A stretch of DNA of 59,120 nucleotides, taken from NCBI GenBank assembly GCA_964533695.1, contig CAZHNH010000112.1:1-59120 (forward strand). Direction: 5' to 3'. Position 1 is the first letter of the stretch; each line of letters begins with the position of its first letter. This document shows positions 3,152-13,880 of the stretch, in pieces. The stretch is from an uncultured Nitrosopumilales archaeon (GTDB taxonomy: Archaea; Thermoproteota; Nitrososphaeria; Nitrososphaerales; Gagatemarchaeaceae). The notes below the pieces were generated by a model. The model had not been told where the DNA came from. It did no database searches and saw nothing but the letters and a program-made list of their open reading frames with translations. The position numbers and the translations under genes are program-made.

Positions 3152-4189
3152 ATGACTTTGGTGGATTTGCGAACGGAAATGAAGAGCATAAAGTCAACGA
3201 TAGACGAGCTGATTTTGGACCAACTACTCCCAACATCAGACTCTATTGCTGAAGTCGACCTTCTTTACAAGATGATGAGGGACTACCCGTCCCGACAGGC
3301 GAAGGGGATGAGGCCCTTCCTCTGCGTCACAACGTGCAGGGCTGGAGGAGGGGAGAGGAGTGATGCCCTGCTCACGGCTGCGTGCATCGAGCTCTTCCAG
3401 CACTGGATTCTAATCCATGACGACATCGAGGACGGCTCCGAACTGCGAAGGGGTGAACCCGCGCTTCACGTCAAGTACGGTGTGCCACTCGCCCTAAACG
3501 CTGGTGACGCTTTGCATGCACGGATGTGGGGGGCGCTTGCACTCAATAACGCGAGTCTCGGACCTCAAAGGACTATTAGGATCATAGAGGAGTTTTCCCA
3601 CATGGTCAATGAGACCACCGAAGGTCAGCACATGGAGTTGGGCTGGATTGCCCGCAAGAAATGGGACTTGCAGGAGTCGGACTACTACGCGATGTGTGCG
3701 AGGAAGACCTCCTGGTATACAATTGCGGGCCCTTGCAGGTTAGGCGCCATTGCGGCTGGAGCGGACGAAAACGTGATGCGGAAGTTAAAAGAATTCGGCC
3801 TCCGTCTCGGCGTGGCCTTCCAGATTCAGGACGACTCCTTAAACCTCTTCGGGGATCAAGAGAAGTATGGAAAGGCGAAGTCCGACGACATCCTCGAGGG
3901 AAAGAGAACGCTCATACTCCTGCATCTTCTAGGCACTGTGGAAGGCCGCGAGAGAGAAAAATTGGTCTCGATTATGAACAAAGACCGTGCCGCGAAGACA
4001 TCTGAAGACGTGGCCAACGTTCTGTCGATGGTTGAGAAACATGATGCGGTGGGCTACGCAAGGAAACGGGCTATCGAAATGATGAAAGAAGCCGTTGGCA
4101 TCCTTGAGGACATAAAATGGAGAGGAGACGATGATGCAGTCGCCCTGTTGGGGCAATTTGCGAGGTTCGCAGTCGAGCGGGAATGGTAA
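3152..4189 (+). CDS. idsA: polyprenyl (geranylgeranyl) diphosphate synthase
   Basis: First Asp-rich motif LIHDDIEDG and second Asp-rich motif FQIQDDSLN; 345 aa. Confidence 0.85.
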   Translation: MTLVDLRTEMKSIKSTIDELILDQLLPTSDSIAEVDLLYKMMRDYPSRQAKGMRPFLCVTTCRAGGGERSDALLTAACIELFQHWILIHDDIEDGSELRRGEPALHVKYGVPLALNAGDALHARMWGALALNNASLGPQRTIRIIEEFSHMVNETTEGQHMELGWIARKKWDLQESDYYAMCARKTSWYTIAGPCRLGAIAAGADENVMRKLKEFGLRLGVAFQIQDDSLNLFGDQEKYGKAKSDDILEGKRTLILLHLLGTVEGREREKLVSIMNKDRAAKTSEDVANVLSMVEKHDAVGYARKRAIEMMKEAVGILEDIKWRGDDDAVALLGQFARFAVEREW

Positions 4190-5913
4190 AGGAGAAATCA
4201 GGGCTGCCCGCTGAGGTCCAGGCAGACATAGAGCTGGCATCGTTGATCAACGCGAGCCGGCATGGAGGAAAAGCAGACGTCGGCGCTGTCATAGGGCGTG
4301 TGCTTGCCGAGCACCCAGAGCTTCGACACTCGCCTAGCGAGGTGGGAAAGGCAGTCGGGTCCACGGTTGCCCGAGTGAACAGACTGAGTCCCTCTGAACA
4401 GCAGGGGCTGCTGAAAGAAAAACAGCCGGATGTGGAAAGACACCCGAAGAAGGAGGGCCGTGCCGGACTGCCGCCACTTCCGGGTGCGATCGAAGGCCAG
4501 ACGGGTTTCAGGTTCCCTCCAGAGCCATCGGGTTTCATGACTGTGGGCCACGCAATGGCGTGCACGATAAACTCCATTTACGCTGAAACATATCACGGTG
4601 AGTTTTGGCTCAGATTCGAGGACACCAACCCGAGGAAGGTAGCCAAGAGGTACTACGATAGCTTCAGGGAGGGGATTGGCTGGCTAGGAATAAAGTGGGA
4701 CCACGAAAAAAACGTCTCAGACGACATCGAACTAATTTACGGCTACGGGAAGAAGCTGATTGAAGATGAGAAAGCTTACGCCTGTTCCTGCACCCTGGAC
4801 AGGGTGAAGGCACTCAGGTTTGAAGGGAGGGCGTGCGAGCACAGGGAGTCCCCAGTCGAGAAAAGCCTTGCCGTCTGGGAGAGGATGCTCGCGAAGCAGG
4901 TGCGAGAAGGAGAATCGGTAGTCAGATTCAAAGGAGACATGAGCAGTGTCAATTACTCTCTTCGCGATCCCAATCTATTCCGAGTGATAGAGAAAGCCCA
5001 TCCACTGACAGGGGAGCGTTACACAGTCTGGCCAACATACCATCTCGCTAATACCATTGAAGACGAAATCTGCAGAATCACCCACATCCTCCGTAGCTCG
5101 GAGTTCAACGCCGAGATTCAGAGACAGATCCGGGGAGCACTCGGCTTCCGCGCACTGAGTGTCATTCAGTTCTCTAGGTTCAACTTCAAGGGGACTCCCG
5201 TCGGAAAGAGACTCCTACGACCTCTTGTAGAGGGGAAGCTTGTCTCTGGATGGGACGATCCAAGAATGCCGACAGTCGAGGGGCTCAAGAGACGGGGTGT
5301 CATTCCTGAAGCCATCCGAGAGTTCACACTCCATGTTGGCTACACGAAGGCCGAACATCAATACGACTGGAGCATGCTTCTCTCGATCAACAAGAAGCTC
5401 CTTGACCCCCGTTCGAAACGAGTCTTCTTCGTCCCTGACCCTATTGAGCTTATCGTCGACGGAGCTCCTCCTAAGAGCGTGTCAATTCCGTTCCACCCGG
5501 ACGCGGACCTAGGAGAGAGGATGGTCAAAACAGAAGGCAGGTTTTTCGTCCCCAAGTCCGACGTGGATTCCCTCAAGAAGGGAGCCAGTCTGAGACTGAT
5601 GGAACTCTATAACATAGAAATTACTTCTCCAGACGGAGCAGCACCGAGGGCGAAGTACACAGGCGAGGAGTTGGTAAAGGAGACGAAGAAGGTACAGTGG
5701 GTCGTCCCTACGGGAAGGGTAGAGGTGATTGTCCTCGAGCCAAGAGTTCTCTTCGACGATGAAGGGAAGTTCAACGCTGAAAGTATGGGGAAGACCAGTG
5801 GAGTCGCGGAGGCGGCCTTCGATTCCTTGGTCCCAGGAACGATAGTGCAATTCCCAAGGTTTGGGTTCTGCAGGATCGACTCTCCTACGACATGCATACT
5901 GGCCCAGCGCTAG
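4183..5913 (+). CDS. gltX: glutamyl-tRNA synthetase, archaeal/eukaryal type
   Basis: 576 aa. Class I HIGH-like region PEPSGFMTVGHAMA and typical catalytic core (WPTYHLANTIEDE, ILRSSEF). The start overlaps the idsA stop. Confidence 0.9.
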   Translation: MVKEKSGLPAEVQADIELASLINASRHGGKADVGAVIGRVLAEHPELRHSPSEVGKAVGSTVARVNRLSPSEQQGLLKEKQPDVERHPKKEGRAGLPPLPGAIEGQTGFRFPPEPSGFMTVGHAMACTINSIYAETYHGEFWLRFEDTNPRKVAKRYYDSFREGIGWLGIKWDHEKNVSDDIELIYGYGKKLIEDEKAYACSCTLDRVKALRFEGRACEHRESPVEKSLAVWERMLAKQVREGESVVRFKGDMSSVNYSLRDPNLFRVIEKAHPLTGERYTVWPTYHLANTIEDEICRITHILRSSEFNAEIQRQIRGALGFRALSVIQFSRFNFKGTPVGKRLLRPLVEGKLVSGWDDPRMPTVEGLKRRGVIPEAIREFTLHVGYTKAEHQYDWSMLLSINKKLLDPRSKRVFFVPDPIELIVDGAPPKSVSIPFHPDADLGERMVKTEGRFFVPKSDVDSLKKGASLRLMELYNIEITSPDGAAPRAKYTGEELVKETKKVQWVVPTGRVEVIVLEPRVLFDDEGKFNAESMGKTSGVAEAAFDSLVPGTIVQFPRFGFCRIDSPTTCILAQR

Positions 5914-9741: not shown

Positions 9742-10227
9742 GTGCTATATTCGAAGAAGGTCATCAAGACGTCAAAACTTGACGAAGTCGACATGAAGAT
9801 TCTGTCGGCTCTACATTCCGATGCATCGATATCCGTTCCAGAGCTTAGCAAGCAACTCGACATCAACCTGTCGGTGGCCTACAGCAGGATCAAGAGGCTC
9901 CAGAAGAGAGGTATCATCGAACGGTTCACAATCACTGTTAACGAGGGGAGTCTAGGGTTGAAAGCCGGCGCACTGGCCGGGTTGAAGATTGACCCTAAAC
10001 AACGAGAATCTGTCCTCAAGGAAATCGAAAACGTCGACGGGGTCAGGCTTATTCGTGAGGTAACTGGCCGTTATGACATCTTCGCCAGCCTGAGGGGGGA
10101 GTCGCTTGACGACCTTCATCGCGCAGTCCATGACGTAATTGGAAAGATTCCAGGCGTCGTTAGCACAGAAATCTTTATGGAAGTCTCCACTCGCCGACCT
10201 CCGATAAGATTTCGCCTGGCCAACTGA
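9742..10227 (+). CDS. Lrp/AsnC family transcriptional regulator
   Basis: N-terminal HTH (LDEVDMKILSALHSDASISVPELSKQLDINLSVAYSRIKRLQKRGII) plus a C-terminal RAM/ACT-like domain. GTG start; an alternative ATG lies at 9793. Confidence 0.85.
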   Translation: MLYSKKVIKTSKLDEVDMKILSALHSDASISVPELSKQLDINLSVAYSRIKRLQKRGIIERFTITVNEGSLGLKAGALAGLKIDPKQRESVLKEIENVDGVRLIREVTGRYDIFASLRGESLDDLHRAVHDVIGKIPGVVSTEIFMEVSTRRPPIRFRLAN

Positions 10228-10275
10228 CCCAGAGGCGGCTAAGATTCTTAAGGGCGAAGCAGCGGCATCGTCCTC

Positions 10276-10962
10276 GTGGACCCACTTGTACTCCTAGACC
10301 AGGCAGTGGCCCAAGGGAAGGTCCCTCAGACGCTTGCAAAGAAGGTGAGGGTCCGCATGTTCCTGGTCCAACAAGCCGTGGACCGCTGCGAGCGGGCAAG
10401 CGGACTGAAGTATCCGGAATACTACGTAGAGCCTACCCTGCCCGTCTCGAAAGGAGGAGGTGATTACGGTGCTATCGGCGTTTTTTTCGCGAGGGTCATT
10501 CCGACGACTGCTGTCGGCACACTGACCATCCTTGTCCAGTTTACAGCGTCACTCATCGCATTCGGGACGAAGGCGACGCTGGAGGCTGTTGCTGCGCATG
10601 AGTTCACCCACTATGTCGTGTTGGTAAGGAAGCTCGCAACAAAGAGTGTTCTGAGCGAAGAGGTTGCTACGTCGCTTTACGAGGCATCTTACGCCGACAG
10701 CGAAAGAACGGTTCCCCCTAAACTCCTATACTCAGATCGCGCACTTGTCTCATTGCTGGCAAGGAAGTTCAAGCCTGAACTAGTCGATTCTGCTCTCAAC
10801 AAGAAAGTTTCCGAGTCTTGGATTTCGAAGGGCCTTCCCATTCGCTGGGTTGGACCGGAGGTCAATCGCGTCGGGCTTGAAATGAGGGTAGTAGCACGTG
10901 CAGTCTTCGACCCGAAGGTCGTGAAGAAGGCAGCGGAAATAGAAGAGAAGATGAAGGGTTGA
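10276..10962 (+). CDS. hypothetical protein with HExxH (zinc-metallopeptidase-like) motif
   Basis: 228 aa with a GTG start. A single AAHEFTHYV motif and no obvious TM segments. The stop overlaps the next gene's start (TTGA). Confidence 0.6.
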   Translation: MDPLVLLDQAVAQGKVPQTLAKKVRVRMFLVQQAVDRCERASGLKYPEYYVEPTLPVSKGGGDYGAIGVFFARVIPTTAVGTLTILVQFTASLIAFGTKATLEAVAAHEFTHYVVLVRKLATKSVLSEEVATSLYEASYADSERTVPPKLLYSDRALVSLLARKFKPELVDSALNKKVSESWISKGLPIRWVGPEVNRVGLEMRVVARAVFDPKVVKKAAEIEEKMKG

Positions 10963-12584
10963 GACTCACTGCTGAAGAGCGCTTAAGCCTCGAGCGAGTC
11001 GCCGCTTCGATGGTGGATCCAACTACGATTGCCGGAGTGGCGGCCTACGGATCTAAGGTAGCAGGCTACGCAAGGCCGGATTCCGATTACGACATGATCG
11101 TCGTGTCCAAGCGTTTCAGGGGAGGAATAAGGTACAGGTACGTGGAAAAACCTATGGCAACATCTGCCCTCATAGTGGACGAGGATCTTCTCACGCAAGA
11201 TGCACAGACGTCTTATCTCGGAGAGTTCGTAGTTGGACGGTTGCTTAACGTATACGAACCAGTGTCGAACGTCGGGTTATTTGCTCGCATTGAGATAGAG
11301 TACAAAAGACGGGTCTTGGCGGAGGCGCTTCTGGAACTGTCTGCCGACTACGGCGAGTTCTGCAAGCACATCGTCGTCCCCTTCGACTACTTCCTGTTCG
11401 AGAAACTTTCGAAGAGGGCGTCCGTGTACCCGCCAGCTCTCTACAGCTATGTCCAGACCTACTCATGTCCTTCGGGCGCCGAGAACAGGAAAATATCGAT
11501 GGCCGGGTTTGCAACCGCGGCGGAAGCCCTGGCCTCGCGCGGCTTTCTCTCGGTTTCCCAGGCTGGTGTCAGAATGGAACCTGAAATGATGAAGGGGGAT
11601 GCCTTCACCAAAGTCCAGTCCATCTTCTCGCTTACTGCAAGGGGGCTCACCCAGTACGCGGTCCACGGCTATGCCGGCCGTGTCGGGCTTTCCGTCTATA
11701 GGAAGGAGGCAGAGTCAAAGCTGAAGCGGATGCGAGAGGTACCCCACAGACTTCCCGAGCTCGAGAGGCCCCGATTACTTCTGAAGTTAGAGGAGGGAAT
11801 AATGATTCCCGACGCGTCTCTTCTTGAGAAGGAGCTCGCCGAGCTTTTGGCCTTCACCGATCACTCCACCAAAGAGCGGGACATTGGCGAGCCCTATTCG
11901 ACCGCGCGCGTGCTTACACTTGCTCACGGTTCTCGCGAGATCGCTGTGGTGGTCAAGAGCTACTCAGACGTCCGTTCATTGAAGTGGGCTCTACTCGGCA
12001 TCTGGGCGGCTGCTGCGAATAGGTTCAGCATGACGCCTATGGCCAGACTCGACAGGGAATATTCAATGACAGGATATCTGAGGAAAGCTGGGATTCTGGT
12101 TCCCGCCATCTTGGCGGTAGCACCTGGCGAAAGGGTTCTGGTAAAGGAGTTCGTTACAGGGCCTACTCTTTCCTCGTTAATTGACGGTCTGATGAAAGGC
12201 GGTCATGACGGTATTGAACAGGTATCGGCATACGCCATCCTTATGGCGAAGGTGCACGGTGCCGGGGTGGCCTTGGGAGACGCCAAAGCAAGCAATGTAG
12301 TCGTCTCGCCTCGAGGTCTCTACTTGACTGACTTGGAACAGTCGGTCATAGGGGGTGATCGGGCATGGGACCTGGCAGAGTTCCTCTACTATACTGCCAA
12401 GCTCTCTATCCGCGACGAAGCGATGAACCACGTTGCGAGGGCCTTCTTAAAGTCGTACGTGTCCTTCGCCGACCGGGCCACGGTGGCACGAGCGAAAAGC
12501 CCCAAGTATTACCGCCCGTTCCAACCGTTCGTAACCCCTGGCATGGCGCGCATGCTTCAGGGAGTGATGGACGGGTTCTGCTAG
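10959..12584 (+). CDS. fusion protein: N-terminal nucleotidyltransferase-fold domain and C-terminal RIO/Bud32-like atypical kinase domain
   Basis: 541 aa. The N-terminus has an NTase-like signature (AAYGSKVAGYARPDSDYDMIVV). The C-terminus has kinase-like elements: VVVKSY (N-lobe Lys), LGDAKASNVVV (catalytic loop Asp/Asn) and YLTDLEQSV (RIO-like metal-binding Asp). Confidence 0.6.
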   Translation: MRLTAEERLSLERVAASMVDPTTIAGVAAYGSKVAGYARPDSDYDMIVVSKRFRGGIRYRYVEKPMATSALIVDEDLLTQDAQTSYLGEFVVGRLLNVYEPVSNVGLFARIEIEYKRRVLAEALLELSADYGEFCKHIVVPFDYFLFEKLSKRASVYPPALYSYVQTYSCPSGAENRKISMAGFATAAEALASRGFLSVSQAGVRMEPEMMKGDAFTKVQSIFSLTARGLTQYAVHGYAGRVGLSVYRKEAESKLKRMREVPHRLPELERPRLLLKLEEGIMIPDASLLEKELAELLAFTDHSTKERDIGEPYSTARVLTLAHGSREIAVVVKSYSDVRSLKWALLGIWAAAANRFSMTPMARLDREYSMTGYLRKAGILVPAILAVAPGERVLVKEFVTGPTLSSLIDGLMKGGHDGIEQVSAYAILMAKVHGAGVALGDAKASNVVVSPRGLYLTDLEQSVIGGDRAWDLAEFLYYTAKLSIRDEAMNHVARAFLKSYVSFADRATVARAKSPKYYRPFQPFVTPGMARMLQGVMDGFC

Positions 12585-12827: not shown

Positions 12828-13880
12828 ATGAGAAACAGACGCGCCACGCTAATAGTTGTTCTTGTCGTCGCCTTATACTTCCTGAACGTACTTCGGATTG
12901 ATGACTTCATCTTTCCTACGTCAACTTCTCTATTCTTCCTCTTTCCTACGTCAACTTCTCTATTCTTCCTTCTCTTCCTAGCCGCTCTTGGTGTAGGAGG
13001 AGCTGTGCCGATCGTCCTTGGAATTGAGGGTCTGTTTAGGCGGTGGGGCGCGAGCGAAATTCCATCCGAGGAATCTGGGCCCTACGCGGAAGCTCGAACA
13101 ATTCCCGACCAACGCGATGGCGAAAATGGTCAGAAAGCGAAGGCATTGAACATGACCGCATCCCCGTCACCAAACGGACACTTGCTCTCGATTGATAATC
13201 CCCGACTTGAAGATGAGGGGACTAATAAGACAGTTCCAGCATCAGATTCCATGCCCGAGATGACAATTTACCGAGAAACGAGCCCGGTGAACCTGTCGCA
13301 GCCGTTGAATAAGCAAACAACATCGATTTACGGGGACGTGTCGAGAGAGAGCACAGTGACACAAGGCGAGCTTGTTGGTAGCAAGAATTTTGTGGCAGCG
13401 AAGACTACTCCCGCCAGAATGACAACCAGCGGTTCAGAAGGAAATAAGCTGACAAACAATTCCACGCAGTCTATGAGCAATGATCGTGAAAACGCGAGTC
13501 AGGAAGACGACACGCTAACCTCGATCTATGCGAAGCAAAAAGAGTATGGTCGGCGGGTATCGGAATTGCTCAAGGATCTTCAGTTCATGGCTAACACGAT
13601 TGTGCAAATACCTCCCGATGCGCTGCGATCGACATGCATGGCAGCGTATCTGACTTCCGATGCAGTAGTTCTTATGTTCGATCGAGACAGGAGCATGGCC
13701 ACTAAACCACTCCGGGACTTCCCGACCGAAGTAATAGTTGCGGTGGTAGCTGCATGCACCTCCAAACTCAAGAAGTCTGTGCTGGAAAAGAAACAACTTG
13801 AAATGGGCAAAGTCCATTCACTCGAGGGTGCAATGAAAGAGTTGGAGGAAGCGAAGGCAGAAGTTGACAGGGAGACGTAG
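12828..13880 (+). CDS. hypothetical membrane-anchored protein with long Ser/Thr/Asn-rich disordered region
   Basis: 350 aa. Hydrophobic N-terminus that contains a duplicated decapeptide, a low-complexity middle, and a helical, charged C-terminus. Confidence 0.55.
   Translation: MRNRRATLIVVLVVALYFLNVLRIDDFIFPTSTSLFFLFPTSTSLFFLLFLAALGVGGAVPIVLGIEGLFRRWGASEIPSEESGPYAEARTIPDQRDGENGQKAKALNMTASPSPNGHLLSIDNPRLEDEGTNKTVPASDSMPEMTIYRETSPVNLSQPLNKQTTSIYGDVSRESTVTQGELVGSKNFVAAKTTPARMTTSGSEGNKLTNNSTQSMSNDRENASQEDDTLTSIYAKQKEYGRRVSELLKDLQFMANTIVQIPPDALRSTCMAAYLTSDAVVLMFDRDRSMATKPLRDFPTEVIVAVVAACTSKLKKSVLEKKQLEMGKVHSLEGAMKELEEAKAEVDRET
12911..12970. repeat. perfect 2 x 30 bp tandem duplication inside a CDS
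   Basis: ctttcctacgtcaacttctctattcttcct occurs at 12911-12940 and again at 12941-12970. It is in frame and encodes FPTSTSLFFL twice. Confidence 0.95.

Follow-up and report, generated by a model that had tools for sequence, protein, structure and literature searches.

A conserved gene pair of the Nitrososphaeria encoding a putative HExxH metal hydrolase and a predicted nucleotidyltransferase–atypical kinase fusion protein

Two overlapping genes on a contig from an uncultured Nitrosopumilales archaeon (GTDB lineage Archaea; Thermoproteota; Nitrososphaeria; Nitrososphaerales; Gagatemarchaeaceae) were analyzed computationally. The window, meaning the whole stretch of DNA under analysis, comprises the 59,120 nucleotides (nt) of contig CAZHNH010000112.1 (GenBank assembly GCA_964533695.1, positions 1 to 59,120, forward strand), and the gene pair occupies positions 10276 to 12584. 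The upstream open reading frame (ORF; 10276..10962, + strand, GTG start) encodes a protein of 228 amino acids (aa) with a HEFTH sequence at aa 108-112 (nt 10597-10611), hereafter the HExxH protein. The downstream ORF (10959..12584, + strand, TTG start) encodes a 541-aa protein, hereafter the fusion protein, with an N-terminal nucleotidyltransferase (NTase)-like module and a C-terminal kinase-like domain. The two genes share the tetranucleotide TTGA, made up of the TGA stop of the HExxH gene (10960-10962) and the TTG start of the fusion gene (10959-10961). The fusion protein carries the motifs Y30-G31-S32, D41-S-D43-Y-D45, G93RLLNVYEPV102, V330VVKSY335, G440DAKASN446 and T457DLEQSV463. An earlier reading made from the DNA letters without database searches (the sequence-only reading) had described both ORFs, their overlap and these motifs, and every one was found as quoted. 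Base composition of the region was unremarkable, and the remainder of the window contains no gene for a paralogous kinase or NTase. Comparative analysis gives good support to the view that the two genes form an operon of the class Nitrososphaeria, passed on vertically and probably transcribed without a leader, which is predicted to encode a hydrolase-like protein and a bifunctional enzyme. The features of the locus, in window coordinates, are as follows.

9742..10227, + strand: Lrp/AsnC-family transcription regulator (Pfam HTH_24, E 3e-12; AsnC_trans_reg, E 5e-11; HTH_AsnC-type).
10239..10252, + strand: promoter-like box CTAAGATTCTTAAG, from an alignment of the Lrp-HExxH spacer at 16 loci.
10276..10962, + strand: HExxH protein, putative gluzincin-like zinc hydrolase (HEFTH; candidate third metal ligand E136, nt 10681-10683; D141, nt 10696-10698).
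10959..10962, + strand: TTGA stop/start overlap of the HExxH and fusion genes (translational coupling), from the sequence.
10959..11213, + strand: predicted pol-beta-type NTase core, fusion aa 1-85 (G31-S32, nt 11049-11054; D43-x-D45, nt 11085-11093).
11214..11738, + strand: helical part of the N-terminal module, fusion aa 86-260, from family-invariant residues in alignments.
11859..12584, + strand: predicted RIO/Bud32-like atypical protein-kinase-fold domain, fusion aa ~301-541, from profiles, Foldseek and invariant residues (K333, nt 11955-11957; catalytic loop G440-D-A-K-A-S-N446, nt 12276-12296; metal-binding D458-L-E-Q461, nt 12330-12341).

The 541-aa fusion is a genuine single polypeptide. 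Searches with the fusion protein returned 596 database clusters at E <= 0.001, the best 120 of which were almost all 541 aa long, shared 63-100% identity and derived from metagenome-assembled genomes (MAGs) of Nitrososphaerales, Thaumarchaeota and Gagatemarchaeaceae. A motif scan of one genome per species located 167 fusion loci; among the 80 of these that were listed, every informatively labelled locus belonged to the Nitrososphaerota/Nitrososphaeria, including Gagatemarchaeum and Conexivisphaerales, at identities down to 39-40%. AlphaFold2 modeled the protein as one continuous, confident chain (mean predicted local distance difference test score, pLDDT, 83). Given some 600 clusters almost all of 541 aa, occurrence in 167 species-level genomes and a single confident model, an assembly or frameshift artefact joining two separate genes, the possibility raised in the sequence-only reading, is excluded. 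A profile of the N-terminal module (N-module, aa 1-300) searched against 1.84 billion representative proteins found 212 clusters (50% identity), mostly of 530-600 aa, so that fusion with the kinase is the rule; the minority of 245-290 aa are stand-alone N-modules, some of the short entries probably being fragments. At two loci (L043, 4001-5624, and L072, 4001-5600) the fusion match lacks its start, beginning near aa 127 and aa 68, respectively, with the partner gene present and one of the MAGs assembled to chromosome level; these truncations are probably assembly frameshift or indel errors, or else real pseudogenes.

The pairing with the HExxH gene is conserved over the same range. At each of the 77 loci with a detected HExxH gene, Nitrosocaldus among them and with identities as low as 39%, this gene lay directly upstream of the fusion gene, and a tblastn survey of 83 loci placed it there wherever enough upstream sequence was available, except at the loci of four paralogues (L069, L070, L077 and L078). 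A 4-nt overlap, TTGA or ATGA, joins the two genes at 65 of the 77 loci, the remaining 12 ranging from a 25-nt gap to a 29-nt overlap. In relatives at 64-66% identity the gene order reads L7Ae-S28e-L24e-NDK-aIF5B-S6e-Lrp-HExxH-fusion, followed by the convergent genes S27ae-S24e-DUF359-Spt4-RpoE. The convergent S27ae and S24e genes are found downstream at nearly all sufficiently long loci, usually within a few hundred bases, and the Lrp gene (46-84% identity) precedes the pair at nearly all Nitrososphaeria loci. In Nitrosocaldus the partner protein is 265 aa long (AHEFLHY ... FEGVYAD), S27ae and S24e are present and Lrp is absent. The sequence-only reading had set the pair at a point where a conserved ribosomal gene block breaks; the pair proved instead to be a fixed member of the arrangement aIF5B-S6e-Lrp-HExxH-fusion/convergent S27ae-S24e-DUF359. 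Since the motifs are invariant down to 39-40% identity, the overlap recurs at 65 of 77 loci and Lrp lies upstream, the gene pair and its motifs are far beyond chance. The phyletic pattern is thus Nitrososphaeria-wide with a fixed locus (167 loci; 83-locus survey), and the fixed chromosomal position among translation genes, together with sequence divergence across the class, argues for vertical inheritance. Two insertions were seen at one of these loci, L003: a TnpB-like gene (Cas12f1-like_TNB; 3920-5185, - strand) lies between Lrp and an undisturbed pair, and the aIF5B gene (1-2677, + strand, 1118 aa) carries an intein (Intein_splicing and LAGLIDADG).

The spacer between the Lrp and HExxH genes contains a conserved box, CTAAGATTC[T/A]TAAG (10239-10252), whose end lies 23 nt upstream of the GTG start (10276), with a TATA-like part TTCTTAAG at 10245-10252. 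In the 16-locus alignment the AA..TC core of the box and the start context GTGGACCC are invariant and the rest of the spacer drifts. The position of the box matches the geometry of an archaeal TATA box serving a leaderless transcript; a promoter dedicated to the pair is therefore probable, and the alignment suggests that the box is the promoter of a leaderless bicistronic mRNA. The box also contains a short inverted repeat, TAAGA-T-TCTTA, and may serve as an Lrp operator as well as a TATA box; the adjacent Lrp/AsnC regulator probably controls the operon. One peat metatranscriptome contig (10142-10443) runs from the 3' end of Lrp across the spacer into the 5' part of the HExxH gene, and is compatible with read-through or with DNA carry-over.

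Of the flanking genes named in the sequence-only reading, the upstream Lrp regulator is conserved, and the downstream membrane ORF is present here without being a conserved neighbor. This ORF (12828-13880, + strand, 350 aa) has two hydrophobic segments, a long low-complexity region and a 30-nt tandem repeat (2.5 copies, 12905-12980) that duplicates the peptide FPTSTSLFFL. None of the 83 related loci has a counterpart of the ORF, which is therefore a genome-specific insertion between the pair and S27ae. Peat metatranscriptome contigs cover it at the highest depth of the region.

The C-terminal module of about 240 aa is, with good support from profiles, fold comparison and residue conservation, a RIO/Bud32-like atypical kinase or ATPase with its catalytic residues intact, much as the motifs had suggested by eye. 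NCBIfam Bud32 models matched at E 1e-13, with scores of 51.1 bits for NF011463 (cut-off 188) and 42.5 bits for TIGR03724 (cut-off 125). Searched against the PDB, the family profile found Bud32 first (8k20_B at E 3e-7, 8unk_B, MJ1130), then PRPK and Rio2. Foldseek with the fusion model ranked PRPK/Bud32 at the top (target-normalised template modelling score, TM-score, 0.6-0.78), followed by Rio2/RioK1 and methylthioribose kinase. Identity to solved Bud32/PRPK structures is about 18-21%. Pfam RIO1 scored 14.0 bits against a cut-off of 22, and a haloarchaeal Rio1 model reached E 0.002 with 17.6 bits versus 480. The domain thus falls below the curated thresholds of both RIO and Bud32 and, by these scores, is a member of neither. 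Residues K333, E367, D441, K443, N446, D458 and Q461 are invariant in all Nitrososphaeria sequences and in 82 of 82 homologues from Bathyarchaeia, as is the metal loop D458-L-E-Q461. We take this D-x-x-Q loop (D-L-E-Q-S-V in the fusion protein) to be of the RIO type, as against the D-F-G of Bud32, and K443 to be the HRD-type lysine typical of protein kinases. Profile, fold, invariant residues and the D-x-x-Q loop together place the domain as an apparently intact atypical kinase/ATPase between RIO and Bud32.

The N-module of about 280 aa is likewise supported as a pol-beta-type NTase with an intact catalytic motif and a helical domain of its own. The pol-beta signature, hG[GS] with [DE]h[DE]h 9-13 residues further on, is present as Y30-G31-S32, ten intervening residues and D43-Y-D45-M, and GS...DxD is invariant in 18 homologues and at 77 of 77 loci with the partner. 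Pfam NTP_transf_2, with a cut-off of 21 bits, scored 19.5 bits on the full fusion and 21.5 bits on the N-terminal 215 aa alone, where Polbeta and MTPAP-like palm matches accompanied it; the stand-alone N-module homologues P0340 and P0327 exceeded the cut-off with 28 bits. These scores, narrow for the fusion itself, support the minimal nucleotidyltransferase proposed from the sequence. A broad family profile matched the minimal NTase 9xbd (E 7.5e-4), then HI0073 and AadA, and weak palm matches of the poly(A)-polymerase type were obtained for 13 of 22 family N-modules. The order of elements in the modeled core (helix-strand-helix-strand-strand-strand) fits an NTase; in the Foldseek search with the whole fusion model, the 50 listed matches all fell on the kinase domain and none on the N-module. 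D81, within the core, and G88, E112, K116 and R118 are invariant family-wide, including in the 82 Bathyarchaeia homologues in which GS/DxD is lost. D74 and D81 are candidates for a third catalytic carboxylate on a later strand; D74 is invariant in close homologues and is E, R or S in remoter ones whose loci retain the HExxH gene. Conservation in the Nitrososphaeria is highest in the block at aa 213-260 (Y..H236..A239-G240...S-K254..R257), of which aa 213-247 were modeled with low confidence. Its H..AG/SK..R residues are kept in the fetched members with intact GS/DxD, including Nitrosocaldus and the stand-alone N-modules; they are degenerate in the L077 paralogue group, partly so in L070, and replaced in Bathyarchaeia. 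Overall, the block appears to track NTase activity.

The HExxH protein has about 477 homologous clusters, nearly all of 228 aa and all unnamed. In an alignment with the partners from the most divergent loci (37-54% identity), H108, E109, F110, H112, Y113, E136 and D141 are invariant to 37-39% identity, as are R37, Y46, P47, P53, G68, R73, P76, W182 and P188. E136 lies 24 residues past H112 on the next predicted helix, within the 18-72 residue range of the gluzincin glutamate. The single HExxH motif and the translational coupling pointed out in the sequence-only reading are thus both conserved features of the family. No Pfam, NCBIfam, PADLOC or PDB family was matched: profiles built from narrow and broad alignments found nothing credible in the PDB, Pfam scans of 19 members gave scattered single matches such as MiaE_2 and SprT-like, and no likeness to Peptidase_M78/ImmA was detected. 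AlphaFold2 (19 homologues) reached a pLDDT of 46, placing strands at residues 69-74 and 85-90 and helices at residues 99-121 and 128-142, and the fold search returned noise (ribosome hibernation factors and RelP, E > 0.2), which was disregarded. Because no family matched, structure prediction failed and the fold matches were noise, the zinc-hydrolase label is one that we infer from motif conservation alone. With that reading, the protein is well supported as a cytosolic, zinc-hydrolase-like protein with an HExxH(+E) arrangement, from an undescribed family; protease, nuclease and pyrophosphatase activities would all be possible.

Partner-less paralogues of the fusion indicate what the HExxH gene goes with. 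At L069, L070, L077 and L078, which are unrelated loci, proteins of 553-568 aa with 40-44% identity are encoded at about 3460-5650 in each; their kinase is intact and their DxD is broken, by D43G in L069 and L070 and by D45N in L077 and L078. One of them, L078, coexists in the same MAG with a canonical pair (L007). All 77 partner loci keep GS/DxD and all four partner-less paralogues have it broken, showing that presence of the partner co-varies with NTase integrity.

More remote full-length members that bear organism names are all from Bathyarchaeia; one, P0371, aligns with the fusion of the window over 538 aa at 27% identity (E 3e-53). Among 82 Bathyarchaeia sequences, S32 is kept in 6 and D43 in 23, and at the position of D45 an aspartate is found in 2 and a glutamate in 40. 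The five family-wide residues are invariant there despite the mostly lost NTase positions, which argues for a role of the N-module independent of nucleotidyl transfer, most simply substrate binding, with catalysis probably retained in the Nitrososphaeria clade. In 60 of 73 sufficiently long Bathyarchaeia loci an RNase J-family beta-CASP gene (446-453 aa) lies directly downstream on the same strand, and in several others it lies slightly further off. The encoded protein matches TIGR00649 (E 1e-28 to 1e-37) and archaeal and bacterial RNase J structures. The fusion and RNase J-like genes overlap at L087 (3112-4473) and L090 (6676-8016), the only loci of this clade with genes called; loci of the clade also include L091-L170. 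At two other remote loci the RNase J-like gene is absent, and in the Nitrososphaeria the 3.5-kb flanks of the loci showed no sign of it, no specific genome-wide search having been made. ORFs of 230-236 aa downstream of the Bathyarchaeia pair were considered as HExxH homologues and rejected, being membrane-anchored or secreted proteins. Public records annotate the Bathyarchaeia fusion inconsistently, as AarF/UbiB, InaA, Bud32 or hypothetical.

Stand-alone N-modules add a further context. At L085 (5001-6894) the gene of a 281-aa N-module with an active NTase motif overlaps an LPG_synthase_TM gene by 11 nt, with Glycos_transf_4 and DUF354 genes adjoining, so that this branch of the family may have a cell-envelope role. 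A second stand-alone N-module locus has no lipid context.

On this basis we propose that the module would act on RNA or a ribonucleoprotein (RNP), the candidates being tRNA, small-subunit rRNA or the small ribosomal subunit itself. The kinase-fold domain would be an ATP-driven switch or a kinase working on the RNA or RNP, as in RIO and Bud32, and substrate binding would fall to the N-module, by way of the family-wide D81, E112, K116 and R118. In the Nitrososphaeria the N-module would act as a nucleotidyltransferase as well, adding a nucleotide to, for instance, a 3' end, and the HExxH metal-hydrolase partner would perform a coupled hydrolytic step. The Bathyarchaeia would use the same scaffold, with the residues for nucleotidyl transfer mostly lost, coupled to an RNase J-like beta-CASP nuclease. 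The two gene products are envisaged as cooperating, perhaps within a complex. Both Bud32 and RIO are ATPases associated with RNA or RNPs, and this, together with the weak poly(A)-polymerase-type palm matches in 13 of 22 N-modules, the position among translation genes and the RNase J neighbor in Bathyarchaeia, is what gives the proposal its RNA direction. Taken as one combined statement (cooperating proteins, an RNA/RNP-associated kinase fold, an N-module that binds or nucleotidylates, and an RNA substrate), the proposal is a tentative one that we rate a little short of probable, most of the uncertainty lying in the nature of the substrate.

Several observations weigh against the proposal. The link to RNA is guilt by association from another class, in which the NTase site has largely lost its catalytic residues and a different enzyme is the partner, and the position between two convergent conserved clusters may be a historical accident. 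The kinase domains of Bathyarchaeia match small-molecule kinases (Kdo, APH) about as well as protein-kinase families. The L085 N-module beside the LPG_synthase_TM and glycosyltransferase genes suggests instead a part in lipid or envelope chemistry. For the HExxH protein no fold was established (pLDDT 46; meaningless fold matches). None of the metatranscriptome contigs, which made up the transcript data, covers the fusion gene.

Some of these observations would be accommodated by a two-step activation of a small molecule, in which the kinase phosphorylates a metabolite, sugar or lipid head-group precursor, the NTase makes the nucleoside diphosphate-activated compound and the HExxH protein is an accessory hydrolase. 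Such a kinase-then-nucleotidyltransferase logic is found in LicA (choline kinase) with LicC and in AmgK with MurU, and a kinase-NTase fusion would be natural for consecutive steps. The Kdo/WaaP and APH matches of homologous kinase domains, the resemblance of the NTase core to aminoglycoside nucleotidyltransferases such as AadA, and the stand-alone N-module gene that overlaps an LPG_synthase_TM gene next to Glycos_transf_4 all fit. We nevertheless consider this explanation rather unlikely: the kinase of the window matches Bud32/PRPK and RIO best by both sequence and fold, its metal loop is the D-x-x-Q typical of RIO, the Bathyarchaeia have mostly lost the NTase residues yet keep the fusion, and metabolic genes are not linked to the pair in the Nitrososphaeria, nor is the second stand-alone N-module in a lipid context. 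Protein-directed signaling, in which the fusion would sense a signal and phosphorylate and/or AMPylate a protein and the HExxH protease would cut a target, possibly Lrp, in the manner of ImmA/ImmR or IrrE/DdrO, could draw on the conserved upstream Lrp neighbor, on a HExxH...E spacing that resembles that of small regulatory zincins such as ImmA and IrrE, and on the protein-kinase-typical K443; some pol-beta NTases do adenylylate proteins. It is an improbable explanation, since similarity to Peptidase_M78/ImmA was not detected, the Nitrosocaldus pair lacks Lrp, the L003 pair has been kept despite the TnpB insertion after Lrp, and the coupling to RNase J in Bathyarchaeia would be left unexplained.

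Three narrower identifications fare worse. Many members are named 'tRNA A-37 threonylcarbamoyl transferase component Bud32' by JGI, and Bud32 is the best sequence and fold match of the kinase domain; that the fusion is the organism's KEOPS Bud32 (tRNA t6A) with an extra domain is nevertheless very hard to sustain, as it scores far under every equivalog cut-off (e.g. 51 vs 188 bits), shares about 18-21% identity with the structures, has a Kae1 gene adjacent at no locus examined, and differs from KEOPS in architecture and partner. The sequence-only reading had noted, in the segment GRLLNVYEPV, a weak by-eye likeness to Tam41/Mmp37-type NTases, and an N-module acting as a CDP-diacylglycerol (or CDP-archaeol) synthase could also be argued from the Firmicute Tam41 7ecd_A (272 aa, about the size of the N-module), which appeared in the profile search, and from the one stand-alone N-module in a membrane/lipid context. 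This likeness did not hold: 7ecd_A matched at E 0.08 over profile positions 11-70, the generic core, with the GRLL motif outside it and no better than AadA or HI0073, and Pfam Mmp37 was unmatched in 22 diverse members even at E 10, so that we give the identification almost no credence. Minimal NTases are common antitoxins, and weak sub-threshold matches to MntA and to the PADLOC candidates PDC-S09 and PD-T4-6 could suggest a toxin-antitoxin or anti-phage module of MNT-like NTase, kinase and protease. The PADLOC matches are insignificant (E 0.005 or worse), and the fixed chromosomal position throughout the class, divergence to 33-40% identity, vertical inheritance and a context in which mobile elements were not seen make such a module highly implausible.

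Returning to the proposed RNA-directed module, a broader and more doubtful extension can be drawn. The fusion could belong to an unrecognised RNA-processing or surveillance core of the Thermoproteota, in which a RIO/Bud32-like ATPase and an NTase-derived binding module recruit or gate a metal-dependent hydrolase: an RNase J-like 5'-3' nuclease in Bathyarchaeia, and in the Nitrososphaeria an active 3'-nucleotidyltransferase with a new HExxH enzyme. If true, this would give archaea an equivalent of tailing-coupled RNA decay, or of a RIO-controlled final maturation of small-subunit rRNA.

The sequence-only reading named no described family for the fusion or its partner, and the searches brought none to light. 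The fusion, the N-module family, the HExxH partner and either gene pair are undescribed in Pfam, NCBIfam, PADLOC, the PDB and the searchable literature; hidden Markov model and structure searches with both proteins matched no characterised family, and literature searches on the fusion, on the JGI COG label and on a link between an archaeal kinase and RNase J returned nothing relevant. Each of the three folds is, or probably is, a member of a known superfamily, and automatic pipelines already tag both domains of the fusion. The fusion is present in the 167 species-level Nitrososphaeria genomes of the motif scan, with a related clade abundant in Bathyarchaeia, and has remained unnamed and inconsistently annotated in two of the most abundant archaeal groups of soils, peat and sediments. 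RIO and Bud32 make up a small set of ancient atypical kinases working as ATPases on ribosomes and tRNA; a third lineage, equipped with an NTase module and hydrolase partners of its own, would enlarge on this pattern and would offer an entry point into the poorly understood RNA maturation and decay of uncultivated archaeal lineages. The lineage-specific loss of NTase residues, correlated with change or loss of the partner, amounts to a natural experiment by which these hypotheses can be tested.

Among known systems, Bud32/PRPK comes closest to aa ~300-541 in both sequence and fold, and shares with the fusion a minimal kinase fold without an activation segment and the catalytic Asp, Asn and metal-binding Asp. 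The catalytic loop of the fusion reads G-D-A-K-A-S-N, compared to H-G-D-L-T-T-S-N in Bud32, and the metal loop D-L-E-Q, compared to D-F-G. The fusion is 541 aa long with an N-terminal NTase module of ~300 aa, whereas Bud32 is a protein of ~200-260 aa or is fused to Kae1; its neighbors are the HExxH protein, Lrp and ribosomal protein genes, and the partners of Bud32 are Kae1/Cgi121. RIO1/RIO2, the small-subunit maturation ATPases, give the second tier of fold matches, and have the D-x-x-Q-S-V metal loop in common with the fusion, the gene of which lies among those of S6e, S24e and S27ae; unlike them, the fusion scores 14 bits against the Pfam RIO1 cut-off of 22, has a different architecture, and yielded no identifiable RIO-specific N-terminal elements. 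The N-module shares hG[GS]-x10-D-x-D and the predicted fold of aa 1-85 with minimal NTases (MNT/HI0073) and with ANT(3'')(9)/AadA, and in both AadA and the N-module the core is followed by a helical domain. It differs in that its helical residues D81, E112, K116, R118, H236 and K254 match no described family, and in being joined to a kinase without a HEPN partner.

The sequence A-A-H-E-F-T-H-Y-V followed by Y-E-A-S-Y-A-D in the HExxH protein is by eye like the HExxH...NExxSD of thermolysin, and the order of strands, HExxH helix and Glu helix predicted in the model of pLDDT 46 would fit minimal gluzincins; the spacing from Glu to Asp is +5 in the HExxH protein as opposed to +4, and neither profile nor fold searches tied it to any peptidase family. 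RNase J/aCPSF2-type beta-CASP proteins, the partner in Bathyarchaeia, parallel the HExxH coupling in that the gene of a metal-dependent hydrolase adjoins the fusion gene on the same strand, but they have the metallo-beta-lactamase fold and their gene lies downstream, not upstream. LicA/LicC and AmgK/MurU share with the fusion the logic of a protein-kinase-like-fold kinase combined with a nucleotidyltransferase; they are separate proteins, and their nucleotidyltransferases are not of the pol-beta fold, whereas in the fusion a pol-beta-type module and the kinase are carried on one polypeptide.

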